A stretch of DNA of 62,948 nt, filler included, from Reclinomonas americana ATCC 50394 (Eukaryota), in the NCBI GenBank assembly GCA_048213135.1. It is 14 parts of 14 records of this genome, joined end to end, with 100 filler letters (N's around TTAATTAATTAA, not from the genome) between each part and the next. Parts side by side here need not be neighbours in the genome. Positions count along the whole stretch, not along the records: positions 1 to 9,887 come from AFZH01020541.1; positions 9,988 to 12,509 come from AFZH01020542.1; positions 12,610 to 15,612 come from AFZH01020543.1; positions 15,713 to 22,271 come from AFZH01020544.1; positions 22,372 to 29,479 come from AFZH01020545.1; positions 29,580 to 32,488 come from AFZH01020546.1; positions 32,589 to 36,680 come from AFZH01020547.1; positions 36,781 to 43,889 come from AFZH01020548.1; 6 more parts are not named here. One strand, written 5' to 3'. Shown here piece after piece: positions 1,369-60,200 of the stretch. Numbering within the stretch: the first letter of the stretch is position 1; each line of letters starts with the position of its first letter. The notes beneath the pieces were generated by a model. That model had not been told where the DNA came from and ran no database searches. It saw only the letters and a program-made list of their open reading frames with translations. The translations under genes and the position numbers were made by a program.

Positions 1369-4300
1369 ATGAACAAAGGTGCACATTAGCTGCTATCTCT
1401 CTCTCCCTCTCTGTCTGAGTGTCTGTCTGCGTGTGTGTGTGTGTGTGCGTGTGCGTGTGAGTGCAAGAACACTGATCCGGACACTTTGACACACACACAC
1501 AGCTCTAAAATCAAACAAGGAACGCCTGGCGTTTGTGCGCCAAGTGTTTGAGCAGTCGCAGGATGGTGAGAGAGCGTGTACATCTCTCTCTCTCTCTCTC
1601 CCTTTCACACACTCATCTCTCTCTCAGTGGACAAGCGATATCAGTTGATCAAGAGCCTGCCGCAATTGCTCAAGATCGCCTCCTGTGAGAGCGACAAGGT
1701 GTTGCGTGAGGTCGCTCGCGTCTTTTATGAGCTCTCGCGCATGGCCGGTGTGCTCGACAGCTCCGACTATCACATTGAGGTGTCGGGTGAGTGAGTCAGT
1801 AGGCTGCGATCACACTCACAGAGTCTTGCATCTCACTCGCCTGAGTGCACGCACAGCCAAGGCACTGGTCGAGCTGTGTCGCTCTTATGATCCAGAGACG
1901 CAGATCCTCACGGCGCAGGCACTCAGCAACCTCGTTGTTGATGGTTTGCTCACGTGCCGCCTGCTTGCGGTGATCGATCCTCTCTCGCGCGCTCATGTCT
2001 CCCTCCCGCTCGCAGAGAACTTTGTGGCGGAGCTGTTGGAGGCCGGTGGCTTTGTGCCTCTGATTGCACTCTTGCGCTCGGAGCACGACATTGTGCTGCA
2101 GGAGGCGTGTCGTGTGTTTATGAATATCAGTCTGAAGAGTTGCGCGCGCGACTCCCTCCTCCTCTCGCCACCTCCACTGTCGCTGCTTACGCTTCCTCTT
2201 TGCGGGTGCAGACGAGTCGGTGTTGCGTCTGACCATCATTTGGTGCGCCAGCCCGCTCACCAATCTGCTCGTGTCCGAGAACATGGATGTGGCGGTGGAG
2301 GCTGCGTATGCCATTGGCACGATGGCCGCGAACGAGAAGATGGCCGAGGAGTTTTACGATTTCGGCATCTTTGACAAGCTGAAGCCGCTGTTGCGCAGCT
2401 GGGATGTCAACTTGAGGCGCGCGTGCATGACGATTGTCGTCAGCCTGGTGAACCACACGTATGTGCGGGCGTACTTTTTCAAGGAGATCTTTGTCGACAA
2501 GCTCTTCCCGCTGTGTCGCGACGAGGAGTTGGAGATTCGCTCGGCGTTGGAACGCGTGTTGGAGAAGCTGGCCACCGAAGACAAGTTCCAGGATGTGCTG
2601 TCAACGCGTGGTGACACCGACATTTTCACATTCATCTTGACGAGTGGCATGTCGAACAACTTGAAACGGCAGTGTGTGGTGGCCGCCTTGCAGCAGAATG
2701 CTCTTCGTGGTGCGTGTGTATGTGCGTGTGTGCGCGTGTGCATGGTATTGCCGTCGGGTGCTCATGTTGCGAGTCGCACAGTTGGGCAAGAGTGGGTTGC
2801 CGCCGATCAAGCCATTCTCACCAGCATCACCACGCTGCTGCTCTCACGGGACCCCGAGATGCAAGCTCCTGCTTTGCGAGCAACGCATGCATGTTCATTC
2901 CACGGTGTGTGCTAGTGCGACGACGCACAGTGCATCTTGTTCTCTCCTCACATGTTTTCTTGTGGTTGGCAGTGGATCTGCGGCAGCGCATTGTACAGAA
3001 GCGAGTGACGCCGGTGCTACTGGAGTATGTGGTGAGCAAGGACGCCGAGCTGCGACTCGTGGCGCTAGAGACAGTATGTAGTCTCTGTCAGGATCGTTGC
3101 GTGCACCCCCATTTGCAACCTCCTTCCCCCCGTCGAGAGCTTACGATCGCCGGCTGCGTAGCTGTCAACGTGCCGAGTGTGTTTGACGACATTGGTGTGG
3201 ATCCACTCTTTGATGCCATGCTGCTCTCCGATCCACGCTTGGTGCGCCTGGCCAGCAAGACGCTGCGCATCTTTACGGAAAATGGTGCGCCATCCTGTTG
3301 GCGACATGGAGACTCGTAACATTACCCATCTGACTCTTCGTGTGTGTGTACGTGCAGCGGATCTGCGTGCCCGTTTTGTCACTCGCGGTGGTATGCGTCA
3401 TCTCATGGTGGGCATGAATGCCAAGGACGTTGTGGTCCACCGTCATGCCGCAGAGGCACTTTACAATCTGTCGCGCTCGAGTTGCGTGCAATCGCCTCAG
3501 TCGAGCACAGCAGTGTGTTGTCGCTCATGTGGCTTACGATCGACGACGCAGATGACTCGTTGGTAGCAATCTTGCGCGACGATTACCTGACGGAACTGTT
3601 GAGCTACGATGCACAAAAGTTGGCGGGCGTGGCAGAGGAGGAGATTTTGGTGTCGGAAGACTTTAGGCGGCCGCCTCTTGTGATTCGGCTCTCCGCTCCC
3701 GGTCCCAAAGACCTCAAGCTGCGCACTCGTCAAGCCGGCATGCAGCTGACGTCACGCACGGGTCAGCCGATCTTTTTGGACGCTGCAGCCGAAGTTCGAC
3801 TGCCCGTGGCTCCAGTTGCGAGGGGGATGGGGGAAATGACACAGGCACGGCTTGGTTTGCCAGTGACTCATTCATTCATTGCAGGATCATGCCTGGTCCG
3901 AGTGGTCTGCCGACGAGCGGCTCCAGATCGGACTGGTGGCTCTCAACACACTGCGTAACATGATTCGCTGCGGTTCGTTGTTTTTTTTTGTCGAATCGTC
4001 TCGTGTCTCACCGGCGCGCGCACTCATTTTTTCCCCGTGCCCCAACGACAGAGGCTCCCGGCATTCAACCGGCCAAGTGGACACGGCTTCGTGCGCGCCT
4101 GGTTACTGCTGTCTTTAATGTGCTGCACTTTACCGAGGTGCCGTTGCTGCGACTGCGCTGCCTGTCCATCATCGACAAGCTGTTGGAGACCAGTTGAGTG
4201 TCATCCCACGTGCTGTGGCCGATGTGGTATCTGACTTTTCAGCCGGTGAATGCGCAGTATCGGACGTGCTCCGCTCTGTTCTCATTGAGCAGCCGCGGTA

Positions 4301-6660
4301 TCCGCAGCGACTGATCGAACTGTTCATCATTCCACTGCACCTCTATATGGTCCGCGGGGAGCTGCAGCCGGTGGATCGACAGGTTGGAATCGTACGCCGC
4401 CGATGCAGTCACATGCATGAATGCACACACTTACGTGTGTGTGGCGCAGGACCCGGATTTCCGAGTTGACACTTCGATTGCTGACGTGCTGCAAAGACTA
4501 CTGAAGCACTTGACCGGGCAGGGTATGTTGGCGATCGTGCGCGCGGGAGCTGCGTATGCGGTGCACTCACTTCCATCGATTTTTGTGTGCACAGGACCGG
4601 CTTGGAACGCCATTGTCGATGGATTTGTGGCCAGCCAGCGTGGTCTTACACTGACTGCCGAAGGTACTCCATCTGTTGTGTTATTTAGCGAGCCTGATGT
4701 CCCTTCCACTCACGCCGCCGCGTACGCAGATGTTGTGCGCTTTGTCATGAGCGACACCACACCGCAACTGTCCTGTTGCGTCATGCTATCATTCTTGTGC
4801 TGACAGCCACTAGTCCTCACAACCCCGCACGCACACAGTGTCAAACATGAGCGACGAATACGTGTTGGTGTACAGTCGGCTGGTCTCCGCAGGTGTCGCC
4901 GCCTGGCTTACAGCCAACGCTGCCGCCACTCACGCAGCGCAAGATGCAAAGCGTGCACGCTCTGCGACCTCAACAGCCGCTGGCGGATCTTCTGTGCTCT
5001 CCTCTTCGACAACACGTGGTCATTTGACTCATGCGCTGGGACGGGGAAGTGTCGGGGCGGCGGGAGCGGCGGCGGCAGCGGCTGCGCATGGTGCGGGCGG
5101 TGTAGGGGCGCCGTTTGAACTGGAGGATCGACCGGAGGATCCGTATGAGAAGCGTGCGAGCTACTTGGCAAACGTGATTGATGAGCGTCGTGACCGAGCG
5201 CTGGCGTACCGGAAACGTCTGCGGTGGTTGTTTGAGGCGCCGACAGAGGCGGATTTGGAGCGTGTGCGACCGACTCGTGTGGAGAAACCGGAGCGCATTT
5301 TCCCGGATGAGAGACCGGTGTTGGACCAGCTGTTCCAGCGGACGGCCGAGTGGACAGGTGCGTTGCTGCAAGTGGCAGGTGTGCTGGAATCGTGGGTCTA
5401 ATTCCGAGACGTGCAGTGGCCACCGAGGCTCAGTTGAAAGCTGGCTCCAAGGGCAGTGTGCCCTCCTCGAAGATTGGTTTCGAGCATCTGTTTGCGTTGC
5501 GTGCGGTGACGCAGTGGGTTGAGGTCGCGAGCTTCTCACCGTAGAATTCAATGCACAGGAAGAAAGTCATTTCCACCCTCAGCATGTACACGAGAGCGTT
5601 GCGTTGTTGCCTGCATGAACCATGCGCACTGGTCACCCTGCTCACATACCATGTGCGATGCAGAACGTCACCCGCGGATGGCACGCAAAAGAGGCCAGCA
5701 AGTGCCACCGTACGACAGAGCTCGTCTTCCAGTCTCTCGCAACGGTACACCAGTCCACCAGCGCTGTCACAATGTCGACCTTGTCAATGACACACCTCTT
5801 CGCAGTGTTCGTCCGGCGTCGGCCCGAGTGATGGGTTCGTCGGGGGTGAATTCTTCTGTCGACACGTCTGCGGCCGGCAGTGGTCGTCCACCGAGTGCCA
5901 TGTCTGAACGAGGAGGATCGGCGCGCCGTGAGGTGCCTGCGCCGATTCGCAAGCGGCCTGTGTCAGCCACAGCAGCGAATGGCATTCAGCGTGTCGTACG
6001 AGCGGCTTCCACCACCAAGTGCGTTCATCTGTGTGCCTTTTTGCTTGCTCTGTGTCGTTTTCCACTTACATGTGACTTGTTCGTAGATTGCGACCAAGCT
6101 CCGCACCGTGCGTACCACGCTTTCGCAGCTGCAACCTGCTCGACGTGCTAACCTCTCTGTCTCCCTTTCCTTCACAGGAGTGGCGCCAAGCGACCGCAGT
6201 CTGCTCCACGGTTCGTTTTTTCTGCTGGTCTTGATGTGTTCCGTGCTGACTTGGTTGTCGCACAGCAATGCTGGAGCACCACGAAACAGCAGCCGCGACG
6301 CGTCGCACCAAATGTCGGCGTCGCCACGCGACTCGGTGCAGGAACTCCGTCGCCTGGCCGCCAGTGTGGCCGGCTCGACAACTGCCGACGGCGATACGTT
6401 GCGTCGGCTGCTGTTGTTCTTGTCTCATCAGTGTTCGTGGCTGTGTCGCTCACATCCACGGTGCGTTGCCTCCATGTCAGTGTACTACTGATGTCGTCGG
6501 CCCGCACACTCTCGTTGCGCATAGTCGTGCTGGGCGCATACCACCTTTTCGTCCATCTCTTCTCACTCGTTTTCTTTGTGTTGTAGTCGCTCGGATTCAC
6601 CGCAGTCTGGCAGGGCGCCGGCCAAGCGACCCATGTCGGCCACTATTCGATGATAGTTAA
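1369..6660 (+). CDS. Armadillo-repeat protein with a low-complexity RPxSA-rich C-terminus (multi-exon)
   Basis: Spliced start MNKALKSNKERLAFVRQVFEQSQDVDKRYQLIK. ARM-like segments include LLEAGGFVPLIALLRSEHDIVLQEACRVFMNIS, PLTNLLVSENMDVAVEAAYAIGTMA and GGMRHLMVGMNAKDVVVHRHAAEALYNLS. Over 20 GT-AG introns restore the frame; the 3' exons are less certain. Confidence 0.8.
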
Positions 6661-6790: not shown

Positions 6791-8975
6791 ATGCTTGACA
6801 TATACAAGCTGCTCCTCTTCGTGTGGTGCGTGTGAATCTCTCATGTTTCCTTCAGCGGGGATCTCCCTCACAGTGTGAGCATGCACAGCGTGTTCATTGC
6901 TGCCACGTGGATCATCTCTGTTGCGCAACGACTCCTCTCCCTTTCTCTCTCCCCTCTCCCTCTCTCACACGTGCATTTCACAGGTGATCACACGTGTTAG
7001 TACGAATGTTCGATCAGTGTTGTCTCGCGCCAGTGTCGAGATCTCCGCCGGCAAGATCATTGTCTCCACCACGCGATTCAATCACTACTTTCATTCATGT
7101 GGTGCGACACACACACACACTTTCCCTCTCATGTTGCCAGTTCTCACCGTGCACGTGCAGGCTCCACGTGGACGCGGTTCTGGAGTCGATGGTTCTCTGT
7201 GGGCGCTCTGATTGGCTTTGCCTGTGCCATTGCCGGCTTTCTGTTCTTCTCACTCAATCTGCTGCGGTTACTGCTGGCGCTGTTCGTCCGCACCGATCAC
7301 GTGTCGGCGGCGGCAGCGGCGGCAGCGGTGGTGGCTGTCGATGGTGTCAGCGGTGCACCAGTGGCGGCGGAAGCAGCGAGTGTACTGATGGATGTCATGT
7401 CGGAGCCGCCGATTGTTGTGCAGCCGCTGGTGTGCATGCTGCTTGATGCATGCGGCCGCGAGGGGGAATTCTGACGCTTCGATGGTGATTTGGGCAGGTG
7501 CCTGGGATCAGCATTCCGCTCTCACACGCCGTGTACCTGTTGGCGGCCATGTTTTGTGGTGCCGTGGTGCACGAATTCGGTCATGCGGTGGCGGCTGCCA
7601 GGTGAGCGTATCGCGTCTGTTGATGCATGCTTGCGCATGCTTGCGATGCTCACTTACATGTGTGTTCAGTCACGGCGTGCCTGTGCGCAACTGTGGATTC
7701 TTCTCGTTCTTTGCGCTGCCGGGTGCGTTTGTGACCATGGACGATGCGTGGGTGCGCTTGCAGCCTTCACAAAGGTGCGTAGGCTGTTGTGCTGTGCCTC
7801 CGGGCGTCCATGCTAACTGCCAGCAATCGAGTAGATTCAGCATCCTGTTCGCTGGCGCCTGGCACAACCTGCTTTTGAGTGCGGCCGCCCTCGGCATTGT
7901 GCTCATTCTCCCCAGTCTGCTGTCAGTGGCCTACGCAAGTGATCAGGGCCTTACCGTGCTCTCTGTCGATGCTGTTGCGTTGCTCGTTTACCTCCCTCGC
8001 TGACGCTTGCTAACCTCGGAACAGGACCACCTACGTGCGCACGTGCATCCGGGCGACTTGATTACCGCCGTCGGTCCCGACAACTGTCAAGTACGAAACC
8101 GAGCCGACTTGGCGCACTGTCTGACGAAACTCGCCGCAACCAAGGACCGCACCGGCTACTGTGTGGGCAGTCTGCTCGAGATGCCTGGCCAGACAGAGCG
8201 CAACACCGAGTGCTGCTACGACGGAGCAGCATCGTCGCAACTGTGCGTGTTGGATCCACTCGGCGATGACGGCTGCGTGCCAGGCCGATCGATTCGCGAT
8301 GCCACCGAGTGCTCGTACGGAGTCGACGAAGACGATTGCGCGGAGCACGGGCCGTGTGTGCGGCCAAAGTTGGCGAGCAGCGAGTACCTGTACAGATTTG
8401 AGGTCACGGATGCCGTCGGGGTGCCGCGAAAACTGGCGGCCATTGGCGCTCTCGCCGATCTCGCCGACCACGGTTTGTCTTTTCTCCCCAGTCGTTCAGC
8501 GCACGGCGATATGATGTTCAACGGGGGCGATGTTGCGCTGTGCAGTGTTGACGAGCGAGTACCTCTTCCGTCTGTCGGATTTCGGTCGATCGTCGGCCTT
8601 GTTGCGCGAGTTTCCGCTGCTGCTGGAGCGCTTCCTCAGGTGCGGCGATGGTTGTTTGTGGAAGCCCGGCTTCACCTCGGTTTCCTCACTTGCTGTCGGC
8701 AGATACCTCTTTGTTGTCAACATTGCTCTGTTCCTCTTCAATTGCCTGCCGGTGGTATCACTGGACGGAGAGAAAGGTGATGCCGTGCGGAGCACCCTGG
8801 TCTTACATCTTCTTGACTGCGATCTCACCGGGTTGGGGAAACGAACACAGTTCTCGGCATCATCACGAGCAGACTATTCCCGCGACATCCGTCCGTACAT
8901 CGGTGGATCGTGTTGCTGTGCACCAGCGTCCTCGTCCTCAACGTTGCGCTCGGTATCTGGGTGTCGAGCGTGTAA
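6791..8975 (+). CDS. MBTPS2: Site-2 protease (M50 intramembrane zinc metalloprotease), MBTPS2-like
   Basis: HEFGH zinc motif near 7570, AGAWHN, a Cys-rich PDZ-like lumenal insert, the FNCLPVVSLDG motif near 8737-8769 and hydrophobic segments. The start codon is inferred. Confidence 0.88.
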
Positions 8976-9851: not shown

Positions 9852-10601
9852 GGAGGGGAGCAGTCGCGACCGAACCGGAACCGTACCNNNNNNNNNNNNN
9901 NNNNNNNNNNNNNNNNNNNNNNNNNNNNNNNTTAATTAATTAANNNNNNNNNNNNNNNNNNNNNNNNNNNNNNNNNNNNNNNNNNNNTGAGAAGAAGGAG
10001 AAGGAGGAAGAAGAACGCGAGTGAGCAGTGATGTAATAAACAACAAATACAAAAACACACAGACCTCTGTGGCCTCGTTCATGGCGCGCACCCAGTCTGT
10101 GACCAATAGCTGCGGATCGACCACACTCGTGTCGTCCGCGGCCACACCAATGATAAACACTCGTCGTACAGTCTCCTCCTCCGAGGGCGGACTGATGGTG
10201 AAACCGCAGCGAATGTGCGGATCTGCTGCCGCCACACTGACCTCGGCGCCCATCAGTGGAATCACACCCTTGGCGGCCTTCACCTGTAAGACACGCAGTG
10301 TGTGTGTGAGTGCGAGTGTGTGTGTGTACGTGTGCAGACACACACACGCAACATCCGAGTCTTTGTAGTAGAACACGAAGGCGCCAATGAGGCGGAACCA
10401 TCTGCGCTTCCATGAACCGACACGCTGACCTGTGTGCGCGTCAAACAGAAACACAGTGTGAGAGTGTGTGTGAGTGACACACAGAGAAAGAGAGAGAGTG
10501 AGTATGTCTGCGCATGCACACATACCCTTCTTGATAAACCATCCTCCGCGCTCGGCACTTCGGTACACTGGGTTGCGCAGGAGAGCAGCAACTTCAGTCA
10601 T
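9236..10601 (-). CDS. Tandem PH-domain protein (spans a gap)
   Basis: PH1: GWFIKKGQRVGSWKRRWFRLIGAFVFYYKDSD...KGVIPL...WVRAM. PH2: LYYFKNEKATCPLGVVDI...CMRLVTPTRTWYM...ETWMAHVRK. Confidence 0.8.
9888..9987. other. Artificial gap spacer, first of 13 (others start at 12510, 15613, 22272, 29480, 32489, 36681, 43890, 46896, 48757, 51166, 54280, 60312)
   Basis: Each is 44N + TTAATTAATTAA (stops in all six frames) + 44N. Confidence 0.97.
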
Positions 10602-13744: not shown

Positions 13745-16700
13745 CGGCTGACACTGTTGCGCAGTGCTTCCGCCGTGCACTGCACACGTGGAACGTCGCG
13801 CCGTGCCTATCTCGTGTGGCTGCCGAGTGGGAGCCGTCGCACACGCGAGTGTGGCTGAATGCTCTCCGCTCTCTGATGTTGACTGCCGAGCGACTTGAGG
13901 TGTGTGGAAGAAGAAGAGTGTTGTTCGACCGTCGAATTATGACTGACGTGAGGCAATGGATCAGGTGTCGCTGGACCGTGAGTGCATCACCACGCTGTCA
14001 ATCACGATCCCGTCGTACCTGCAATCGTATGCGGAGATCCAGCAAAATCTTCGTCAGCTCATCTTGCAGCAGTCGCAGCAGAGCCGTCGCTTGGCCTGTC
14101 TGTGGACGTCGCTCATTGGCAGTCAGGTGTGTGCACGTGCTCCGTCGTCCGTTCGTCTCACAGTGCTGCTGCATCGCTGATGTCGCGCGTGCGTGCAGTT
14201 GAGCGTGCACCCCATGTTTGAGGCTCTATTCAATGAGATTGTCGGGTGCGCCTGCACGTGTTACGGACTGGCGGTCGTCAACGAGCTGGCCGCCGTGCAG
14301 TGCGTCAATACCACCCACGGAAGCGTCAGCGAGTTCCTGATTGTCCACATGTTGGATAAGCAGAGTTGCGTGTGGCGTGTCAGTAGGCAGGTGGTTCCAC
14401 CCCCCGCTGCATACTCAAGTCTTCTCTCGATGCAGTGTACTGGACCACGTTCCTGTATGCCACGCTGAGCGTGCAGATGGGCACCGAGACACGCCTTGTG
14501 TGGAAGCGACTGTTCAATCGCGCGCTGATGGCCGTTCCCGAGGCCATGCAGCTGCCTGCCTTGTTGCCACTGTTGCATGGCATTTTGTCGTCGTCGTGCT
14601 TGCAAGGTGACACCTGACAATGTGTGTGTTTCTTTATGCCACACATTAACTTGCTCACCTCGTCTCGCGTGCCGCAGAGCTCCACGTGGAGGAGGCGCAG
14701 ATGCTGCGCGACCAGTTCCTCGCATTTTCACTCGGTGCTGTGGAGGCTGCAGATTTGTCGCAGCTGTGGGGTGCATGTGCGGCCGATCAGACTGCACTCG
14801 CCATGTTGCGTAGATGCAGCGTTCTTGCACTCCACAATGAGACCCGCCGCTGTGCTGAACCAACAGTGCCACATTAGTGAGCTGATTGACAGAATACTAA
14901 AGGACATGGCGCGAGAGCGCTACCCTGCACCACCTGCCGCGTCGGCAAGTCGCACTGCTGCTATTGCCGCTGGTGCCAGTCAGGTTCACACATGTGCAAG
15001 ATTGCTTTACCGCTGTGTCCGCTCACTGCCACATCCGTGCAGTCGGTATGGGAGGCACACGCTCTGCGTGCTCGCACGCTGCTGAACCGAAAGGGCGACA
15101 ATGCTGTTGCCGCACAACGTGCTTCTGCGGATGCGATTGAACTCACTCTCGACGAGCGGTACGTCTGTCTCTTTCCTGGTGGCGGTGCTGATGTTGCTCA
15201 TTTCCGTGCCTCGTGACAGACTCCATCACATTGAAAACTGGAAGCTGCTACTCGTGCAGGCGCTGGATCCGAGTTGCGATCGACCGTTCTCCATTGTGAT
15301 TCTGTATATTTCTTGCTGACGAGTATGCACACGTGCAGCGGTATTGGAAGCTGCCATGAGCAACGTTGTCATTTGCGAACTGCGCTATCAGCAGGATTTG
15401 CGCGAGCTGGCCGTTTCGTTTTTTGCTCTTTGTGTGCGTGTTTCCGTCTCCCCTCACACACGCCTCACGATGTTGCGCGGTAGGAACTCGATGCGCACTA
15501 CTTGGCCCTGTGCGTTCAACTGTTCCGTACTGAGCGCGTGACCTCGCAAAGTTCTGTCGCCTTCACTGCATCTCTCCAATGCGCGCACCACTTCCTGATT
15601 GCATTGTCCTTGNNNNNNNNNNNNNNNNNNNNNNNNNNNNNNNNNNNNNNNNNNNNTTAATTAATTAANNNNNNNNNNNNNNNNNNNNNNNNNNNNNNNN
15701 NNNNNNNNNNNNCGGCGTGGCCAATCATCAAGATGCACCGCACCGCATTCCCGAGAGTATCTTGCACAAGCTGCGTTTGTGCTGTGAACAGCTGGAGGCG
15801 GTCGGCTGCCGCGACTGGACCTCCCAGGAACAGTTTCGTTGCAGTGATCGTTGTCTGCGGATGATTTCTGCTGCTCAACATCATGATTCCTCGCAGTCTG
15901 CTGCGCGCCCTCCTGCTGGTTCCAGACAACGTGTTTGACGACGATCAAGGTAATGCCAGTGAGCTGTGTTCTTGCCTTTCATTTGTTGTTGCTTACCTGG
16001 TGCGCAGAGTGTGAGGGCCCTCTCACCACGCTGCTTGCTGCCTTTGCTCCGGCCGTCCTGGTGCATCAGCGCGCGGTCTCGGTGGACACATGCATCGCTG
16101 AAGGGTGCGTGCGCGTGTGTGCAGCAGCCTCTTGTCAATAATTACGTCTCTTATACCTGCCTCACAGATCGCTGTATCATCGTCTTCTGGTCGAGTGCGT
16201 CCGGTGGCTCCAACAGCAGGGCGCCGTCGGCAGCCGCAAAGGCGCCAAGCTGCTGCAAGCCTTTGACATTGCGCGTGTTGGTACAGCGTTGTTGGCAGTG
16301 GCCGCGCACGAAGTTGCGTGCCGCCTGTACTCGCTCTTGTACGACGCGTGACATCCTCCTCACCTTTGTCGGTCCTCCACCAGTCGGCGGTTCCACAAGT
16401 CGAACGCGTCGTGTTGCCGCTGGCCGAATTGGCACTGTCCGATGTGCACTTGTCGGCCGCGTCTCACGGCCTGTTCAAGGCCCTGCAGCAGGTATGCACG
16501 CACGCATTCTCCGTTTGGCATTTGCCTCGTAGGGCTGACTTTGTGCAATTGCAGCACGTGCCGCACCGGCTGATGAACCTCTTCCAGTCGTCTCTCGAGA
16601 GCCACTTGGCGGCATTGACGGCTGCCGCCGCTGCCGAGGGTCAGCAGCACCGAGCGTGGCCTCAGTTTGCTCCGCTGTTTGCCAGCCTCGACAACACACA

Positions 16701-32190: not shown

Positions 32191-32199
32191 GGACGTCGG

Positions 32200-32256: not shown

Positions 32257-32421
32257 GGAAGAATGCACGAGGCAGGAAGCGAGAACGGAGAATGAACCCG
32301 ATTGTTGTGCTCAGTACGGCAGAGTGAGGCGGATGGCAAAAAGTTGATGCATGCATGCATGATCAATGTGTCCTCGTCCGCCCCACTTCGTCATCATATC
32401 ACTCAACACCAAACAGTGAAG

Positions 32422-40229: not shown

Positions 40230-40801
40230 GAATGTGTGTGCTGAAGATCACTCGACGATGATGATATAAAAAGCGATTGCTGTGTGGCAGAGTGAGGTGT
40301 GAGTCATATCGCTGAACTCGCTGCTCCTTTGTGAACGAGAGAGAGGAAGGGAGAGAGGGGGAAGAAGAGAGGGAGGGAGCGAGGGCAGCGCGTGCCAGAG
40401 CATGCCGAGAAGTGCAGGTCGGACATTGTGAGAAACCACGCCTTTCGCCCAGACGCGCACGAGGAGCGGAGGATGACGCGGAGAGACAGAGAGACAGAGA
40501 GAGAGAGATGATTCTTTCTCCTGGTACACGAACCTCTTGAGTGCCGCGCGTGCGATTCGAGCGTGCAATAACAAACAGGACAATTTCAATTCATTGACTT
40601 ATAGACGAAACGTTTGCGTGCTTCCGAGCTGCGATAGCTCCGCGTGCTCCATCATACCCACTGGCGTGAATACAACCGACTGCGTTAAGGTGAAACGATG
40701 AGCGTTGACAAAAAAACCGTGCGCACGGAAAAATTCGAACACGCAACGTCGGGAGTCCATGGCGCGACGTGATCCGCTTTCTGTGGAGGTGGAGAGGCCG
40801 A

Positions 40802-42218: not shown

Positions 42219-43195
42219 ATGAGCGCTCCTCTGCGTCTGCTGTCGCAAGCAGAGGCGGCACTGGTCGATCTGCGCCTCATGAGCGACGAGTTTGGCTTTT
42301 CTCTGCCGCAGCTCATGGAGCTGGCCGGTGAGTTGTCTCTCTCTGCGCCCTCCACTCTCTCTCTCACACACGGAGAGTGCAGGGTTGAGCTGTGCGGCGG
42401 CCATTCGGCACTGGCGATCACCAGTGGAGGAGGCCAATCGGCATCCACTCGTTGTGTGCGGACCCGGCAACAACGGAGGCGATGGACTGGTGGCCGCGCG
42501 ACACTTGGCGCTGTTTGGGTATCGGCCCACCGTTGTGTACCCAAAGCCCAACAAGTCGGAGCACTTTGCGGTGTGCATTCGTTGCTGTGTGCGTGTGTGA
42601 GGCTGGCGCTGATTGCCTCGCCTACAAGGGATTGATCAAGCAATGCTCGCACTTTGGGATTCCGGTGGTGGCCGAGTGGCCGCGCGAAGGCACCGTCTCC
42701 TTCATTGTGGACGCGGTGTTTGGCTTCAGCTTCAAGGGCGATGTGCGTGCTCCGTTTGACGGCATCCTTCGTGAGATGATCCGATTGCAAGCCAGTGTGC
42801 CGGTGCGTGTTTGCTGTCTCTCTCTCTCTCTCTTCTCTCCCTCGTACCGGTGGCATCATTCGCTCGGCAGGTGTTCTCCATCGACATTCCGTCGGGGTGG
42901 GACGTGGAGCAGGGCGATGTGGCGGGCACCGGGTTCCGGCCGCAGGCCGTCATCTCCCTGACCGCGCCCAAACTGTGCATGCGCGGCTACACTGGCACGC
43001 ACTACCTGGGCGGTCGCTTTGTGCCATTGTTGCGTGCCGTGCCGTGCTGCTTCTCCGTGCGTGTCTATATATGTGTGTGGGAGACTGACACAAGCTGCGC
43101 GCAGCTCGCTGGCCGAGGAGCTCGAACTTGCGCTCCCCGAGTACCCGGATGCCGATCAATTTGTGCTGCTCTCCGACGAGGCGGGGCGCCAGTGA
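42219..43195 (+). CDS. NAXE: NAD(P)HX epimerase (YjeF_N)
   Basis: [79 protein letters not shown] and HYLGGRFVP. Confidence 0.93.
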
Positions 43196-47319: not shown

Positions 47320-48702
47320 CCACTCAGTCCCCTGCCCGCGCGCTAATCGACTTCTTTCTTCGCTCGTCGTTGTCTCCCTCTCTCTTGTTTCTCTCTCCAC
47401 TCTCGGCATCCTTTCCTGCATCTGTTCTGATCCATTTCTTCTTCTTCTTTTTCTTCTCTCTCTCTCTCTTTCTATGTGGCTTCTGACCATGCACTCAAAA
47501 GACAGCCAACGCTCTGGCGTGCACATGCTGTTCAGTCGACTGCGGCTCTTTTTTTCTTTGTCCCTCATCTGCACGTGCGCTGATCATACCTCTTGCTCCT
47601 CTCTCTCTCTCTCTCTCGCTCTCTCCCCCTCTCCCTCTCTCCCTCTTCTGTGCTGATCGTGTTTCTTCGTGTCGCAGGCATTCTTCAAAAAGTTTCTGCG
47701 ACAATGCAAGCAGTACTCACTGATCGACCCGCTGGACATGCGCATGCTCGCACCGTTCTTCGAGGCGGAGGAGGATGGAGCGTCGTCGAGTGACAGCGGT
47801 TTTGAGTTCCGTCGACCGTCGGTGGATGCACAGACGGAGCGTGCACTGAAGGTGCAGAGGTACAAGCGCGGGAAGGAACTCGAGGCGCGGATGAAGGAGC
47901 TGTCGGAGCGCGTGAGACAGTGGCGGCTACACGAGGGCGAGAGTGTGGAGTCGGACATGGAGGAGGCGGAGCGGAATTGTGTGATGGAGACGGCCAAGTA
48001 TTTTGTCAGCAAGTGTGTCGATGAGCTGCCGCTGTTGAGTGACGAGAAGCGGCTATTGCGACATCGGCATGAGTCGGTGGAGGTGGGCCGCGATCCGCGT
48101 GAACGGTTACCACATGAGCCGCCGGTGAGGAGGGAAGGAGTCTGTGAGAAAGGGAAAGTGCAGAGTCGGGGACGGAGAGATTCACGGCGACTTTCTATCT
48201 TGTGAGTGTCTGTCTGGCGTTAGAGGAGAGCGTGAGAATGGCGTGGGAATGTCTACGGTTGCCAGAAACGACATGTGTTTTCGGGTGGGAGGTATTTCGA
48301 CACTCATCTTCGCTGCACACAGACACAACCCATCAAGACCTTCACCATCCAGTCTCAGCGCGACGCCATTGTGAAGAGCATGTTTACGCCGAAGAATTTG
48401 CCGACCATGACCCCGGAGGAATGGGCCGACGAGCAGATTGCCCGCGGTTTGCTGTTGCGTCTCGCTGTCGATACCGGCGTGGTGCTTTACGGTATTTTCT
48501 TACATGCGATTGTAGGTCGTCAGCCGAAGTGGCCGCCAGGGAAGCCGGTGTGCCCTACACGAGAGAAAAGGACGGAGAGGAGGAGGAAGAGGACGAGGAA
48601 GGACTGGAGGATCCGGATGATGAGACTGAGCTGCGAAAGGCGCGCAAGTGGGACGATTGGAAGGACGAACATCAGCGTGGTGCCGGCAACCGTGGCCGCT
48701 AA
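46669..48702 (+). CDS. IGBP1: Tap42/alpha4 PP2A-family regulatory protein (spans a gap)
   Basis: RALKVQRYKRGKELE, NLPTMTPEEWADEQ and the C-terminal KARKWDDWKDEHQRGAGNR hallmark. The start is approximate. Confidence 0.88.
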
Positions 48703-50741: not shown

Positions 50742-53700
50742 ATGTCGTCACCACCGCCTCACAACCTGCTGGACAAGCTGGACGATGAGGCGCTGATTGC
50801 GGCCTTTGCTGAGAGCATGCAGCAGCAGTTGTGGGACGAGCGGCGTCGCGCAGCTCGTCGTCGACAAGAGGCCGATCGCGCCGCCAAGTCACCTCAACAG
50901 ACGCGCAAGTCACCCTCGTCGCCCATGACACCATCGCCGACCTCCACTGCCACTGTGACCACTGCGGTTGGTGGTGGTGGTGTTGGTGGCAGTGGAGGAG
51001 GAAGCGCTGCTGTGAAGGCGCGAGTGGGTGAGATGAAAGTGCCAAAGACACCATCGCCTCCCTCGCCGCCCGGGCCCACCAGTGCCATGCGCCGTGCTCC
51101 GTCACCCGTGGTTTCGCGTGGTGAGTGCGCACACACGTACTCTCTCTCTCTCTCTCTCTCTCTCTNNNNNNNNNNNNNNNNNNNNNNNNNNNNNNNNNNN
51201 NNNNNNNNNTTAATTAATTAANNNNNNNNNNNNNNNNNNNNNNNNNNNNNNNNNNNNNNNNNNNNGAGTCTCACTGTCGCTTGTGTCTGATCCACTTGAT
51301 TGTTGTGCTGCAGTGGCGACGGGCCGTCGAACGGCAATGGCGTCGACAGGTGTGCTCTTGTGCGCGTCTTCTTTGTTTGTCGCACCGTCGCAGCTCACTG
51401 TGCGATGTGTCTTGTGTCTCAGTGCATCGAAACCTCTCAAAAAGTATGCTTCTCCCTCATCGTGTTTTTGTTGGTTTTGCTCACCCCGTTCGCAGTGCGT
51501 GGGCGATTCTCGGCAAGCGCCCGCCCACACCCGTCGACAACGGTCGGCTTGCCTCTGGCAAGAAGCGCAGTGTCTCGCCGGCCACCGTCGGAGCATCGCG
51601 AAAGAAGGAGGTGCCGATGGACGAGAGCGAAGTGAGCGCGCCGGCGACGAAGCGAGCAAAGAGGTGTGTGTGTGCATGCAGGGTTCTCCTACTGCCGCAT
51701 TGCTCCTCTTTGCGCTGACTGATGACCATGTCGGGCACTATTGAAGGGCTCACAAGCAGGCCGACGACGTGGCCAGCACGTTGCAAAAGTGCGTTCACAC
51801 CGACTTATTCATTCGTACTTGCTTCGCTCACCCCCCTCCCAGAGACGCAACACCCGCTCGAGGTGCCAAGGCCTCCAAAAAGTCGGCGAAGCGGTGCGCT
51901 GCACGCCAACCACGCTTCTCCTCGCGTTTCGCACTCATCTCCGCCATGCAGGAATACGACGAATTCACCAACCACCGCCACCGCAACCACCACCACCCCA
52001 GCGAGTGTGAGAAAACGCCGCACTTCCGCCTCGTCGCCGCAGCCACCGCGCTCGACCACGCCCACCGCAAGTGTAGGGCTGGATCTCTCCAAGTTTGGCT
52101 TTGCTGCTGGCCGACAAAAAGCACCCGAGCGTCCCATCACCCCACCACCCTCCACCGCCCCTGCGCCGCCAGCGACGACGGTACGTGTGTGTGTGTGTAT
52201 GTGCAAGTGTGGTTGCTTCCCCCTCGCTTCTCTGCTCACTATTCCTGCGAGAACAGAAACGTCGCAATGCACGTTCTCCGTCGATCGCTGCCGCTGTCAG
52301 TCGTAACTCGCCCGTGCGGCCGGTACTGTAACATGCTCCACCTGGCCCCACGCCCCACTATTTCACTTTCCCACCCCTGGTGTGTGCACAGACACGACCC
52401 CGGCCTCCATCTCCAGCGTCCGACCGTGGACTGTTTGTGGGCATTCAGAATCGCCGACCTCCCCGCCCACCGGTTGCGCTTGAACGAGTGCTCCTTCCTT
52501 TTGCATCCTTTGCTTACGCTCATCCTGCTTCTCCTGCTGCTTTGCAGTCGCCGGTGCTGCCGATGAATACAAACGCGATGGGGACGCAGACTGCTGCCGC
52601 CTCCGCCACCACCACTGTGACGACCACCGCCAAGGGTGGTACCGCTGCTGCTGCCGCCGCCGCTGCCGCCGCTGCCGCCGCCGCCGCTGCTTCGTCATCG
52701 TTGCCAGGCAGCCGTCCAGTCGTTGCTGCGCCCTCGAATCCTGCAGGTACACGCACCCGTGTTGTTGCTGTGGATGAATATCGTGGACTGAGTACTTGTG
52801 TTGCAGAGCCGAGCGGTGTGTGTCCAGCGCTGCCTACGCTTGACCTCTGTCTCCCACCTCACTTCTCATCTTTGCTCCTCTGCGCAGTGGATGAATTCGA
52901 CGATCTTGACGAGTGAGTGCATAATGTTTGTCATCCTCGTCTCTCCCGTTGCCGTCTCACACGCGCACGTGCACAGCGACCTCGACTGGCAGCGGGTCGA
53001 CAGTGTGCTCAGCACACGCGTGCTCTCGCAGGATCGACAGCAGGCACCACCTCCGCCTCCACCACCGCCTCCACCTCCACCACCACCTCCACCTCCACAA
53101 CAACATTCATATCTGGAGCCGTGGGATGTTCGTTCCCCCGTGCATGTCTTCCGTGCAACGCACGAGCACTCATCGCGAATGGTGGAATGCGCAGGAGTTG
53201 GAAGATGAGGAGTCGCTCACTGCACAAGAGTACGACATGCTGATGGCCAGCATTGCGCCACACAACTCGGTCGCCCCGAGCACGCCGTCGCGACACAGTC
53301 GCACCTCGGCCAAGGCGAATTCACCTGGACGGCTGTCGGGTGCCGTCGGTAAGCCGCTGGTGTTTTTCTTGTTTGCGTGTGACACTTTTATCGCTCATCG
53401 TGCCTCGCTGCAGTGGAATCACCGTTCTACAAGCGACGCGAGGCCATGGGTGAGTCGCAGCGTCAATTCTCCTTTTTTTCGCGAGTCTCCTTTTTCTGAA
53501 AAATAGCAACTGGCATCGACAGGCAACCAGCTCGATGAGCACCAGTGGCGCGCGGTGCTGGCTCCACTGGACAAGTCCATGATCATTTTCGCTTGTGCTG
53601 GTACGCAGTGTTTCTTCCTTGTTGCAAGATGAGAAGAGTGTTCAGCGCGCACTTGTTGCTGTGCTGTCAGGCTCTGGCAAAACCAAGACCATGTGTTGGC

Positions 53701-56700
53701 GCATTGCGCGGATGGTGGACGAGGGTATTGAGCCATCATCCATCCTGGCGGTCACGGTGCGCTCCTTCCATGGCCAGCCTCCTCGTCGGTGCTCACATTC
53801 TCTCACCTTTTGCACTTCGCGCATCGCACAGTTCTCCAAAAAGGCGGCAATGGAGATGCGTGAGCGCATCACTGGCGTGCTGGGCATCAGCAAGACGAAC
53901 GAGATCAGCATTTACACCTTTCACGCCTTTTGCTTGCGTGTCGTCATGGCGTACCCAGAGGTTGGTGGTGTGCACAGAACTGCTGCTGACAAGCACGTCT
54001 GTGTCTCATGTTGGTGCACAGGAGGCTGGCTTTGATGCAGTCCCCACTGTCATTGACCACCAGCGCCAGTTTGACATTGTCAAGGACGTGTTGACGAAGC
54101 ACGCCATGCTTCGGCAGGCCGCCAATCAAAACAGCAGTGCAGACGGCAAAGCAGATCCGTCGTCGTCGTCGTCGTCGAATGCGGCGACAGGTGTCGGCCA
54201 CGATCTTCCTCCCCGCTCAGCGGCCGCTCCCGACAGCGAGGGCAAGAAAATCGAGATCAAGAATCAGGACGTCGAGAGCNNNNNNNNNNNNNNNNNNNNN
54301 NNNNNNNNNNNNNNNNNNNNNNNTTAATTAATTAANNNNNNNNNNNNNNNNNNNNNNNNNNNNNNNNNNNNNNNNNNNNCAAGGAGAATCCCAAACTGCG
54401 TGAGCGGTATCAGCGCCGGTATCCCTTTATCCTGGTCGACGAGGTCTGTTGCAATTTGTCGTGCTTCAGTCCGTGCTGTCTCTCTCAACTCATGCACACC
54501 CACGACTGCAGTTTCAAGACACGTCGCCCGTGCAGTTTGAGTTGCTGAAGCTGTTGTATTCTCGTGCCGGGAGCATTGTTGGTGAGTTGGTGGAGACACT
54601 GTTGCCGTCGCGTCGTTTCGCCCGCCTGTGCTGATTTGTATGTTGCAGCCGTCGGTGATGTGAGTCACCTTTCCCCCCACGCCACCACAACTCTGCTGTT
54701 ATCTCTCGTGTCGTCGTCGCTCACACTTGCAGCACAAAGGACGATCAATCAATCTACTCGTTCCGCGGTACCAAGGCTGGCATCTTTCACGAGTTCAAAA
54801 CCGAGTTCCAGTCGGTGCAGCACAGCCTCACCACCAACTGTTGCGTTTTCCCTTGCGCCTGCTGTCCTGCACTTGCACTCGCTCATCCCTGTCCGATGAC
54901 ACAGATCGCAGCACGCACCGTATTGTGCAGCTGGCGCGTGAGATCATCAGCTTGAATCATTATCGCACCGAGAAGCCACTGCTGTTGCGTTTTGCTGTCC
55001 TCGTCGTGACCGATGAATGTGCAGCGCTCGCCTGACGTTGGTGCATCGCTCTCGCTCCCTTTTGCCGTTGCGGGTGAGCAGTGCGCACAGCGCCAATTCG
55101 GTTGGCGACAAGATCGAGCTGTTTGTGGGTGCCTCGGTCGAGAACGAGGTGCAGCAGGTGTTCAATCGCATCAACCAGCTGGTGCACGGCGATGGAGTGA
55201 GCCTGTGCGACAGTTGCGTCACGGGAGCCTGATCGCGCTGCGTGACTGTTGGTTTCGTCGAGCCACTTATTCTTCTGTGTACATCTCTGCTGTGTCGCAG
55301 TTGCGATTTTGAGTCGAGTAAGGAAGAATGTGTTGGTCGATTTTGAGCGTGAGGCCAAGCGGCGAGGACTGCCGATTGTGCGACGTACCAGTCGCGCCTT
55401 CTCGCAGATGGAGGTACGCAAGTGTGTTCCCCGTTTCTCGCACCACACGCGTTGGCTCATCTAAGCGCAGGCACAACACATTCTTGCATACCTGTCGCTG
55501 GTTGTCAACCCCGACGATCGCATCTCGTTTGAGCGCGTGATCAATGGTACGTACAGAGGGCGGAGTGTGTTGTCGCTGTTCGCGTGACCACACTGACGGA
55601 CGAGCTGTTGTGTATTGACAGTGCCGAGACGCAATCTCGGACCACAAGCCGTGCAGTACATCAAGCAACTTGCCCGACGAGAGAATGTTGCGTGCACGCG
55701 TAGTGTGTGTTGTCGAGTTGCAGAAGAATACTCATGGTGATATGTGGTACATACAGTTGGCCCTGGTCGGTGCCTGCCACTTTGCCGTTCAGTACGACGT
55801 GCCAGCCATCGAAGGCATTCGACGACCGGGACGACGTGGCATCGAGGAGTTTGTATCGCTCATGGATCATTTGAGTTCGCTGGCGGAGACCGGCACGCCA
55901 CTGGATCTCATTCGGTACGGCTCTGCCGGTGGAGTGCTTTGCTGTGCTTTGCTCATTTGTACGTGTGATATTGCCAGGGAGGTACTGGAGCGTACCACGT
56001 ACGCCGACGTGGCACGCAAGATACGCGACGAGAAGATGAAATCGTTGGACCGACTGCGGGCACTTGGCAAGGCTCACTCGGAGGCCTCGCGCGAGGATGA
56101 CGATGAGGACGATGCGGTCCGTATGCATGCATGCACTGCTGGCTGAAGGCGTCGTCTCACTCACTGTGTGTATGCGTGTGTGTGCAGGAGTCACAAGTGA
56201 AGAACAATCTCGAGCGGCTGCTGCAGGAGACGGAAAACGTGATGAACAACATGTGCCTGGAGCTGGTACGTCGATCCTGCTCACTGTATGAGTGTGTTAT
56301 CTGCTGGCGGAGTGACTGCGCCTTCTCTCCTTGCAGCCCGGCAACCGTGCTCCTGAGGACTTGCATGGCGTGGAGTTTCTGGCATCGTTCCTCGAAGAGG
56401 TGGCGGTCTTCACAGACGAGGTGGATGCTCCGGTGCAGCGTGAGAACGGCTTGTCGATCGAGACCATTCACCAGGCCAAGGGACTGCAGTGGAAATACGT
56501 GTTCCTCGTGCGCATGAACGAGGGCCTGTGTCCGCTGTTGTCCATGGAGACGGAGCATCCCATTCCCACCAAGGCCTCCGAGGATCACATGGAGGAGGAG
56601 CGGCGCATGGCCTACGTGGGCGTCACGCGTGCGCAGCACGCACTGGTGATCTCCACCGTGTGCCTCCCGCCCGGCGCATCCGCTGTCGACGCTTCTAGTC

Positions 56701-57250: not shown

Positions 57251-60200
57251 ATGTCTGCGCCACGTCGCCCCTCCTCGTCGGCCTCTGGCACACGCCCTTC
57301 CTCGTCAGCCTCTGCCGCGCGCCCCTCGTCGTCGGCCTCCGCGGCTCGTCCCTCGTCGGCTGCGGCCGGCAGCGCACGACCCTCTTCCGCGGCCGCCGGC
57401 TCCAGTCGCCGCCCCGCCGGTTCCTTGTCGCCACCCTCTGCCGCCTCTGCTCCTCCACGCCGCAGTGTGGTGTCGGTCGCATCGCCGAGTGGCGTGACGA
57501 TCGATACACCACGCGCGCCCTTTGGCAGTGGCTTGCTGAATGCCGACGATGTAGCAGCGCTGTACAGAGCGCGTTGCAAAGTTGCGTATCCAAATGAGAG
57601 AGCGATGGGAAACTCTCTTGTGAGCGTGTGTGTGTGTCAATCAATCATCGCATCATTGATCCCGCGCAAAAATTTGTGGCGACAACTGTGACTGACCACG
57701 GTGGTGCTGCAGGATCAGAACCTGGATGTGCAGAGTGATCGCGAGGATCGATTCGTTACCGTCATTCAAGAGCTGTGCAAGGGCATGACACTCAGCCTGC
57801 GACAGCAAAACTTTGGTGCGATTGCAGACGCACTTTCTCTCTTTCCACTTGTGTCTTGTCTCACGTGTCCCTCACACATACACACATAGGGACGAACTGC
57901 GCCCGCGTCTTGTGCCGCATGCTCAAGGACGACAACTCGTTTGGCACCATCGATCTGCAGGGTTGCGTTTTGGTTGTATATGTGTGTGTGTGTGTGTGTG
58001 TGCTCGCAGTTCAACCGACACTGACTTGTGCCGGCACAGGCAATCGTTTCCGTGACGAGGGCGCCAAGTGTGCGTGCTGAGCTCTATTGTTTTGTTTCAC
58101 TCCGCTGCCTGCTGGCTGACACTGCTGCTGCTGCTGCTGCTGTTGTTGCAGACATTGGGGGCATTCTGCGGTTCAACACCACATGTGTGATGCTGGATCT
58201 GCGCTCCAATGATATTGGGCCGCAGGGTGCTACGGACTTGGTATGCGCTGCGTGTTCTTGTTGTTGCGCGCTATTGCGTGTATTTGACTTGCGCGCGTGC
58301 GCAGCTCGAGCCACTGGTGGAGGTCAATCGCACTCTCACCTCGCTCGACATGTCGGCCATTGCCGGTGTCAATCGCAATCACATTGGCAAAGAGGGCTCT
58401 CGCGTCATGGCCGAGGTCCTCCGATACAACGATGGTGCGCCTACAAACCGTGCACGTGCACGCACCCAGTGGGATATTCTTGCCTTTGTTCCCTCACCCA
58501 CAGATGCATTCGTGCAGTGCTGGTCGACTTGGCTCTCGGCTCCAACGGCATTGGCGCGGATGGCATTCTTCTGTTGTCGGCTGGTCTCGCCTGCAACCAC
58601 ACGCTGACCACGCTGGACCTCTCCTCCAATGCCATCACTGGCGAGGTGTGCCCGGCTCTGTTCACCGCGCTCATGTCGACGGCGGTGCACACGCTGAATC
58701 TCTCGCAAAATGTGCTCGGCGATCGCGGGTGGGTGATGTGCCGATCTCTCCCTCTCTCTACGGACACTATGTGGCTTCATGTGTGCCTAACAAAACTTGC
58801 CATCTGCAGTGCCGCGGCCATGGCCTTGTTCTTCGCCGACGAGACCGTGGCAACGAGCTCGTCGCTGACATCGCTGAATCTGGACTCGAATCGTCTGGGT
58901 GGTGCCGAGAACGAGGGAGTGCTGGCGTTTCTGCGTGCACTGAAAGGCTCTCAGCGTCTCAAGCACTTGGTGCTCGATAACAATCCCGTGGCGCCATTCG
59001 TCACGACACTGGCGACAACACTGCGTGAACATCGAAGTCTGGAGGTGTTGTCGCTCAACTCGGTCGGATTCGACAAGGTGTGCGCGCCTCTCGCACTCAA
59101 CAGAATAGGGGTGTTGTCAGCTGATGTGTGCTGTGAATTCGTCCACAGGATTCGGGCAGTGCACTGCTCAACTCACTGCTGACCAACAATGTGCTGCGCG
59201 AGTTGTATGTGTCGCAAAATTACCTCGAGGCGGCGGGCGCGGCGCCGTTGCAGACGTTGCTGGAGAAGAATCACACACTGCAAGTGATCGATGTCAGCAA
59301 CTGTCGTCTCGACGACTCAGGTGTGCTGTCTCACTCTGTGGCGCACTTGTAGAGCTCCCCCTTATTTCACTCACGCTTTTGTGTGCCTCTTCTCTCTCCC
59401 TCGCTCTCTAGCGGGCGAACGCATCGTGCAAGGCCTCGCTCGAAACCACGGCATTCGCAACTTCATCTGCCGTCACAACAATCTGCGAGTGGTCGGGCCG
59501 CAGCTCGCCGACATTGCAGCCGGTCGACTGGACATTATGCAGCTCGACGTCACCTTTAACGACATCAATTTCAAGTACCTCAAGTTGATCGAGGACGCAA
59601 CGAAAGAGAACGCCAAGCGCTTCAAGGTGCATTCGCAGTGCTCTGCCTGTGCGAGCTGATCGCTTTACCTATTGCCCTCGTCACAGGCCGGCGAATCCGA
59701 TCGCCTGCGCGAGCGCATCGATGCGCTGTACGAGGTGGCGACGCAGCTGCAGAACGCTCGTCGTGAGATTGTGCGCGAGGACGCGCAGATTGTTGAGAAC
59801 AGCAAGAGTTGCGATCCGCTCTTCACCTTCCTGTCCTTGCGCTCTCGTGTGTTTGACCGACTGCGCACAGTTGCTGAGGAGCGGCGCGAGGTGCTTGCTG
59901 AAGCCGAGGCCGACTCGCAGGCGCAGCTCGACAAGCTGCAGGCGAGGTACGAGGAGGTCAAGGCTCGCCGGTGGAAACTCGAGGAGAAACTGGATGAGAT
60001 CAAGAGCAAGTCCAGCGAGTTCCGCTCAGATGCCGAGTTGGAGTTGGCCACACTGGAGGAGCAGTCGGAGGCCGAGCGTGCACAGCGAGCACACATTGAC
60101 AAGCAGATGAAGGTGCGTTTGTGTGTGTTTCCAGGGAAAGAAAACAGGGAAAGGAAACAGTGAAAAGGCAAAGAGAGACGACAACACAGAGAGAGAGATG

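Follow-up and report, generated by a model that had tools for sequence, protein, structure and literature searches.

How is the 5′ end of an intron recognised when the conserved part of its donor signal lies one base too far downstream? The question is raised by a stretch of DNA from Reclinomonas americana ATCC 50394 (one window of 62,948 bases, about 63 kb, with a GC content near 0.57, to which all counts given here refer). A first-pass annotation had noted, beside introns with ordinary donors such as G/GTGCG (a slash marks the exon-intron boundary throughout), an abundance of introns beginning with GTTGCG, in which the conserved G falls at +6 rather than +5. It proposed that these are cut directly before the first G, that they follow exons ending in A, C or T, and that the motif is an ordinary donor displaced by one base. 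Reading frames and homology show the GTTGCG introns to behave as short introns of the ordinary GT-AG type that the major spliceosome removes, with the predicted cut right before the G of GTTGCG(T). The class makes up about 19-20% of the predicted donors in the window.

The GTTGCG donor class and its cut sites

Introns were called with a home-made, self-training gene finder, designed to avoid circularity: exons receive a three-periodic Markov coding score, and the sole demand on introns is GT..AG. GTTGCG was the top donor hexamer (8 of 100 introns) when signal models were left out entirely, and again (31 of 197) when acceptor, branch, and length models were learned with no donor model. The final model has a donor table confined to positions +3 to +6, blind to the exon base at -1, and uses regional strand masking, exon-by-exon strand arbitration having lost true short exons. 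It gives about 39.5 kb of coding sequence and a very dense set of 206 short introns, whose median length is near 71 nucleotides (nt). GTTGCG accounts for 39 of the 206 donors, the runners-up being GTGAGT (13) and GTGCGT (12). Three of the 39 (33118, 33602, and 34057) are copies in a tandem duplicate, leaving 36 independent donors. By five-letter word, the ordinary donors are GTGAG (25), GTGCG (23), GTGTG (17), GTTTG (13), and GTACG (10).

Banning a donor class from the model without donor preferences measures how much the fit depends on it: the loss was 89.9 nats for GTTGCG, 70.7 for GTGAG, 56.0 for GTGCG, 54.6 for GTGTG, and 43.3 for GTTTG, while five control words cost 0 to 13.6 nats. Within predicted genes GTTGCG occurs 74 times in the sense orientation and 23 times in antisense (binomial p 2e-7). 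It serves as a donor at 39 of its 104 occurrences in the window; the control words GTTGCC and GTCGCG do so at 1 of 47 and 0 of 65. Removal is required for an open frame in 33 of the 39 GTTGCG introns, and eight of the donors have no alternative in-phase GT within 60 nt. H/GTTTCGT, the counterpart of G/GTTCGT, is a further displaced word; it was found at six sites (15413, 15833, and 18119 on the plus strand; 23759, 24330, and 41263 on the minus strand), with a base other than G at -1 in 6 of 6 and T at +7 in 6 of 6.

The donor-agnostic gene finder, the strand bias, and the control words thus bear out, in the window, the excess of GTTGCG donors reported in the first-pass annotation. All 41 coordinates that it listed do carry the hexamers (GTTGCG at 39, GTTGAG at 4193, and GTTGTG at 30177), preceded by A, C, or T everywhere except at 57962, as it had said. 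As donors, 31 of the 41 are recovered by the final gene model, and a coding-potential test of the flanks backs five more that lie outside it (3096, 3481, 6398, 30177, and 37736). At 5496 and 44150 the same test is weak, the downstream flank there not resembling coding sequence, and it lends no backing to 5598, 25537, or 44643. Nine further GTTGCG donors were not on that list (3815, 6514, 31089, 33118, 38465, 38681, 40747, 52473, and 55213). Because of these additional sites, and of the second displaced word, the observation is firmer than originally stated.

The position of the cut was scanned by homology in a UvrD/PcrA-like helicase gene, with a junction profile of 102 PcrA-like proteins, and in a gene for CCP6 (cytosolic carboxypeptidase 6), with a CCP profile of 55 proteins. 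The scan took in all in-frame, stop-free variants with ends up to 24 nt to either side, whatever their dinucleotides. The introns concerned, together with one in a NAXE/YjeF_N gene, are:

54840..54904, plus strand: helicase intron T/GTTGCGT, removal of which forms ..NYRST..; rank 1 of 787 variants, a cut one base later costing 5 bits
54984..55090, plus strand: helicase intron T/GTTGCGT; GTTGCG donor in all three top GT-AG variants
55213..55300, plus strand: helicase intron A/GTTGCGT, among those new to the list; rank 1 of 701
55687..55756, plus strand: helicase intron T/GTTGCGT; top GT-AG variant, 228.6 versus 224.4
25044..25123, minus strand: CCP6 intron A/GTTGCGC (..IVNSS/KGK..); top of 776 variants, tied with one giving an identical peptide
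23695..23759, minus strand: CCP6 intron T/GTTTCGT; rank 1 of 783 junction variants with the CCP profile
24272..24330, minus strand: CCP6 intron A/GTTTCGT; sole in-frame GT-AG option within 24 nt
43029..43104, plus strand: NAXE/YjeF_N intron T/GTTGCGT (..GGRFVP tt/); exon aligned to mouse AIBP through its last residue

At all five GTTGCG junctions scanned (four in the helicase gene, one in that for CCP6) the profiles place the cut exactly before the G, and at 54840, 55213, and 25123 a GT-AG variant came first even with the dinucleotides left free. The profile scans therefore agree with the cuts argued earlier from the NYRST motif of the helicase and from IVNSS/KGK in CCP6. The cut proposed for NAXE is consistent with the alignment, in which the exon ends at residue 235 of 265 in the AIBP chain, with 30 codons left after splicing; this fits the junction but is not decisive, and nothing usable in the PDB matched the last exon, of 29 residues, when it was searched alone. 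Taken from homology, the predicted cuts appear secure at the scanned junctions, and statistically secure for the class.

At the 3′ end, GTTGCG and ordinary introns are alike. A YTNAY branch motif is present in 31 of 39 GTTGCG introns and 98 of 117 ordinary ones (background at random AGs, 27%), at a median distance to the 3′ end of 20 in both; the CAG acceptor is alike in both; and length (71 versus 70) and GC content (0.535 versus 0.539) are nearly equal. This equality of branch, acceptor, length, and GC argues for the same 3′ machinery and makes a U12-like system unlikely. U12-type introns have in common with the present class that they form a second donor class within the same genes; they were rejected as candidates, since an RTATCCTT-like donor word is absent and the branch motifs, their distances, and the acceptors are those of ordinary introns. 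GT-AG ends are found in all 46 listed introns, by construction, as the gene finder permits GT..AG only. Introns of the kind found on the outlier chromosomes of Mamiellophyceae were likewise considered and rejected: those are AT-rich and signal-less, as far as the available part of their description goes (PMC3879977), while the GTTGCG introns have 53-54% GC and clear signals.

The exon end and how the displaced word may be read

G stands at the last exon position, -1, before 2 of 39 GTTGCG donors, compared with 87 of 119 ordinary donors with G at +5 (+5G donors; Fisher 1e-14). When only the 102 introns that satisfy strict criteria are considered (those whose removal is needed, with coding-like exons on both sides and a branch motif, 50-110 nt long, duplicates dropped), the counts are 0 of 20 and 52 of 63 (1e-11). 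If the donors of the non-redundant set are instead sorted by the exon base before them, 104 follow a base other than G, and 40 of these are displaced ones (34 GTTGCG and 6 GTTTCG); of the 97 that follow G, 2 are. The proposed tie between GTTGCG donors and exons not ending in G is upheld by these counts.

The flanks of the class resemble those of ordinary donors one position away. Base counts at -1 of GTTGCG donors (A 16, T 12, C 9, G 2) are similar to those at -2 of ordinary donors (A 32, C 24, T 20, G 11), and the frequency of A at -1, 16 of 39 compared with a background of 20% (p 0.002), is as expected for a slot that normally holds -2. Likewise T at +7 (25 of 39) matches T at the ordinary +6 (68 of 119). 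When the 36 independent GTTGCG donors were scored on their flanks against the +5G donor profile, in register or slid by one base, sliding improved the fit by 32 nats for the exon flank, to which -1 alone contributed, and by 18 nats for the intron flank, mostly from +7. This comparison supports the earlier description of the motif as an ordinary donor displaced by one base. Against a standard U1 5′ end, more base pairs form in a register shifted by +1 than in the canonical register at 28 of 36 GTTGCG donors and 6 of 6 GTTTCG donors, but at 8 of 117 +5G donors.

These features suggest a mechanism in which U1 small nuclear RNA (snRNA) pairs in a register shifted by +1 and the cut is set by the sole GU at hand, a reading to which we give somewhat better than an even chance. 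A GTTGCG donor would correspond to the usual exon G followed by GTGCGT, with the second letter of that signal changed from G to T, so that the only GU would sit one base further upstream. With U1 displaced by +1, intron G+1 would fill the slot of exon G-1; U+2 would face the next C and form the one mismatch; U+3 would fill the U+2 slot; and G or U, C, G, and U at +4 to +7 would fill the slots of +3 to +6. The cleavage site would be set not by U1 but by the requirement for GU at the start of the intron when U6 and U5 take over, which would imply that one base is looped out when U6 makes its later contact. The displaced class would in this way serve exons that do not end in G. Overall, the first-pass interpretation is partly supported. 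A variant U1 or U6, or an altered U1C, LUC7, or SNRNP27, which it further suggested, would be a possible cause.

Several observations weigh against a simple shift of U1. Part of the contrast at -1 is composition, since G is also scarce before GTTGCG at non-donor sites (6 of 65) and reaches 16% before non-donor GTT of any kind (p 0.04 for the 2 of 39 at GTTGCG donors against this 16%). Because non-donor GTTGCG is also poor in preceding G, the donors are better said to miss the usual -1G enrichment than to be specially depleted in G; the scarcity of -1G noted earlier holds in the former sense and not in the latter. Exon positions -2 and -3 do not separate the shifted from the unshifted alignment. 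The pair counts take for granted a standard 5′ end of U1, as tabulated in PMC4856993, and that of the host may differ. Displaced forms of other ordinary words are few: GTTGAG occurs once, GTTGTG at most once, and GTTACG not at all, though GTGAG is found 25 times, GTGTG 17 times, and GTACG 10 times. Six GTTGCG donors have an in-phase +5G donor 9-21 nt downstream as a possible alternative. The gene finder is home-made and leaves 48 of 206 donors outside every class, and the entire case is built on one 63-kb window.

The 48 unclassed donors, outside both the +5G and the displaced classes, include GTGCAA, GTTCAT, and GTCAAT; some are probably errors of the gene finder, and others may represent additional weak types of donor.

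The displaced register seems to need C-G at +5 and +6, which a simple shift does not account for. Possibly the mismatch at +2 has to be offset by the strongest downstream pairs, or the host's U1, or a second U1, is non-standard. The preference of ordinary donors for T or C over A at +4 (42, 41, and 30, respectively) hints likewise at a non-standard U1 or at a need for stronger pairs.

The main rival explanation takes up this point. It supposes either a second U1 snRNA set apart for the class or just one U1, altered opposite +2; the 5′ end would be fully complementary to GUUGCGU, so that the class would be read without mismatch and, given a second U1, the introns would be split between two U1 species. 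The size of the class (about 20% of donors), its word-specificity for GTT(G or T)CG, and T at +7 in 25 of 39 would suit a matched RNA over tolerated mispairing; and there are precedents, in the part of a preprint available (bioRxiv 10.1101/2022.06.08.495308), in the co-evolved U1 5′ ends of Entamoeba and Mastigamoeba and in Physarum, said to have both a standard and a modified U1. The same part of that source tells against it as well: the U1 of Thecamonas, where C is preferred at +4, is standard, and in Micromonas pusilla, which has GYGCGY donors, U1 shows no compensatory change (bioRxiv 10.1101/2022.06.08.495308); nor are the 3′ signals of the class distinct. We consider an altered or second U1 rather unlikely. 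An Rfam scan of the window found no snRNA genes: nothing reached the gathering threshold, and relaxing the cut-off to an E of 1 brought only two weak miRNA-like (microRNA-like) chance matches. Less probable still is a canonical register in which one U (+2/+3) would bulge out of the helix with U1, G+1 and U+2 would pair normally, and GCGU would pair after the bulge. Registers with a bulge at +3 (or +2) are described at human sites in the available part of PMC4856993, and the 18-nat shift on the intron side would fit a bulge equally well. A bulge would, however, shift the intron side alone and leave exon -1 opposite the same U1 C, where G should be favoured; its frequency of 2 of 39, versus 87 of 119, and the 32 nats by which the exon side fits the shifted profile, tell against this candidate.

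Recognition might also not involve U1 pairing at all, depending instead on a protein of U1 or of the tri-snRNP (small nuclear ribonucleoprotein), on U6, or on U5, or the motif might be a compositional by-product at real donors. The strict C-G at +5 and +6, which standard U1 pairing does not predict, would be at home here; the displaced match at -1 and +7 is, on the other side, the expectation for RNA pairing, and we think such a mode of recognition improbable. That the splice sites are mis-assigned, with the true cuts at other GTs, is harder to believe again. It has in its favour the six sites with canonical-looking downstream donors, of which one is a tandem-duplicate copy and another, 55687, is a site where homology sides with GTTGCG; against it, the calls made without a donor model agree with the homology scans at five GTTGCG junctions, and the eight sites without another in-phase GT within 60 nt leave it little room. 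Finally, the common 7-base start and the narrow range of lengths (62-80 nt) might bring to mind copies of a mobile intron family (introners) with a conserved 5′ end. Ordinary introns have equal lengths, and an all-versus-all comparison of the 206 introns found similarity only in tandem gene copies and microsatellites, contradicting this origin; because the introns have no similarity beyond the donor word, we regard an introner family as ruled out for practical purposes.

A bolder form of the preferred reading, with the +1 register or a second U1 as its means, would be that two modes of reading 5′ splice sites operate side by side as part of normal expression: exons ending in G would be read in the ordinary way, and exons ending in A, C, or T mostly through GUU(G or U)CGU, by a second U1 or an obligatory shift. 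We hold this to be doubtful, if conceivable.

Further introns of the class and the genes around them

The remaining members of the displaced class, with their support, are:

2139..2211, plus strand: intron A/GTTGCGC in an ARM-repeat gene; in the gene model, frame requires removal
3096..3161, plus strand: intron C/GTTGCGT; outside the gene model, both flanks coding-like, signal 5.8
3481..3551, plus strand: intron A/GTTGCGT; flank test, acceptor at 3551 or 3566
3815..3884, plus strand: intron A/GTTGCGA, newly added; gene model
4193..4257, plus strand: intron A/GTTGAGT, the single GTTGAG case; flank test and final intron list
4775..4838, plus strand: intron T/GTTGCGT; no other in-phase GT within 60 nt
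6398..6480, plus strand: intron C/GTTGCGT; flank test
6514..6586, plus strand: intron C/GTTGCGC, newly added; final intron list
6920..6983, plus strand: intron T/GTTGCGC in an M50 peptidase gene; final intron list
7974..8024, plus strand: intron T/GTTGCGT in the M50 peptidase gene; final intron list
10284..10352, minus strand: intron T/GTTGCGT in a PH-domain gene; flank test and final intron list
11225-11287 and 11404-11467, plus strand: two introns with GTTGCGT donors; final intron list
14365..19408, plus strand: long orphan gene with GTTGCG donors at 14365, 14805, 15273, 16313, 18588, 19118, and 19350, and GTTTCGT donors at 15413, 15833, and 18119
30177..30257, plus strand: intron A/GTTGTGT, the single GTTGTG case; flank test
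30561..34129, plus strand: region with GTTGCG donors at 30561, 31089, 31573, and 32029, and tandem-duplicate copies at 33118, 33602, and 34057
35387..35452, plus strand: intron T/GTTGCGA; final intron list
37660..37736, minus strand: intron A/GTTGCGT; flank test
38393..39283, minus strand: region with GTTGCG donors at 38465, 38681, 38847, and 39283; final intron list
40680..41263, minus strand: region with a C/GTTGCGT donor at 40747 and a T/GTTTCGT donor at 41263; final intron list
48454..48515, plus strand: intron T/GTTGCGT in a TAP42 gene; no other in-phase GT
52473..52547, plus strand: intron G/GTTGCGC, one of the two with G at -1; final intron list
57962..58009, plus strand: short intron (48 nt) G/GTTGCGT; final intron list, less certain
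59808..59870, plus strand: intron A/GTTGCGA; final intron list

The duplication is of a multi-exon orphan gene on the plus strand (about 30857-32101 and 32881-34129, offset about 2.03 kb); introns of the two copies, three GTTGCG introns among them, are 96-100% identical.

Few of the genes are recognised by Pfam: the ARM-repeat, M50 peptidase, PH-domain, WD40, GH76 hydrolase, CCP6, NAXE/YjeF_N, TAP42, UvrD/PcrA-like helicase, and LRR genes. Among 67 predicted exons of at least 50 residues that were scanned, 56 are without a Pfam match, and homology searches with the ARM-repeat and TAP42 exons returned no match. For CCP6, the best full-length matches are 45-47% identical, to a cluster including the diplonemid Flectonema neradi, a representative, P0163, and the tunicate Ciona. 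The GH76 glycosyl hydrolase gene (25794-27131, minus strand) lies directly upstream of that for CCP6 on the same strand, and the gene finder merged both.

The helicase gene (53523-57174, plus strand) has at least 10 introns, and its gene model is interrupted by a masked block at 54280-54379, one of thirteen such blocks between 9888 and 60411 of the window, each of 44 N, 12 bases, and 44 N. A search with helicase exon sequence returned only bacterial PcrA-like proteins, up to 48% identical; the nearest relatives in the protein collection, of Chloroflexota-type PcrA, have 31-48% identity over the last large exon. Among metagenome loci, matches of the helicase exon do not exceed 58% identity in stretches of up to 26 residues, or 45% in longer ones. 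These bacterial relatives suggest that the gene may be an old transfer or organelle-derived. Long (CA)n and (GA)n runs occupy several gaps and the few long "introns" (e.g., near 10056 and 51125).

Relation to known systems

Shifted-register (+1) 5′ splice sites in human genes were reportedly described by Roca and Krainer in 2009, and bulged-nucleotide U1 registers, it is said, by Roca et al. in 2012. Human +1 sites are also described by Tan et al. (2016), and the available part of that paper puts the validated non-canonical bulge and asymmetric-loop registers at 1.5% of 201,541 human sites (PMC4856993). If the displaced register proposed here is correct, the likeness to the human shifted sites would be close: U1 pairs displaced by one position, G+1 in the -1G slot, and the cut still at GU. 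In contrast to those sites, rare in what that part of the paper covers, a single motif here supplies about 19% of the predicted donors, and over a third of the donors that follow a base other than G; it also differs in being GC-rich, GUUGCGU, with U+3 paired and a single mismatch left. With the bulged registers, as the same portion of PMC4856993 presents them, the class has in common that GU and the conserved G downstream of it stand one nucleotide further apart; unlike in those, the predicted -1G preference is not seen.

Atypical donors matched by U1 are known in other protists. As far as the available part of one preprint shows, Entamoeba pairs a U1 5′ end of ACAAAC with the donor GUUUGU, and Mastigamoeba one of ACGUAC with GUACGU (bioRxiv 10.1101/2022.06.08.495308). 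The present class is like these in its atypical, tightly conserved donor word; theirs is U1-matched, whereas that of R. americana is known from the donors alone, and theirs is, on the same partial source, one consensus that replaces the standard one, whereas here two registers would occur side by side in the same genes. R. americana, with GTGCGT as an ordinary donor word in a GC-rich genome, recalls the Mamiellophyceae, described in the available part of PMC3879977 as having AG/GTGCGT donors, few canonical introns, and an NCTGAC branch 43-52 nt upstream; Micromonas pusilla, with its GYGCGY donors, is an alga of the Mamiellales (bioRxiv 10.1101/2022.06.08.495308, also in part). In contrast to R. 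americana, that part of the Mamiellophyceae paper mentions no GTTGCG class (PMC3879977). A search of full-text literature, with most subscription journals and supplements outside its coverage, found no GTTGCG or GUUGCG donor class, matches to the word itself being primers and unrelated sequences; nor, with most subscription journals again outside, did it find any organism in which a shifted register forms a major class.

In human genes, shifted and bulged U1 registers are rare exceptions, relevant to the prediction of splice mutations; the sequence of this window suggests that a pairing mode rare in humans may be routine in R. americana. Gene predictors that use a single donor matrix would misplace many exon ends in this organism. 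If the shifted reading is true, its genome would offer a natural large-scale test of how finding the site (U1) relates to choosing the phosphate (U6, U5, and Prp8), and of whether snRNAs co-evolve with shifted signals. Should the two-mode reading hold, the base at the exon end and the donor type would be coupled genome-wide, and U1 binding and the choice of cleavage site would be uncoupled at thousands of introns.

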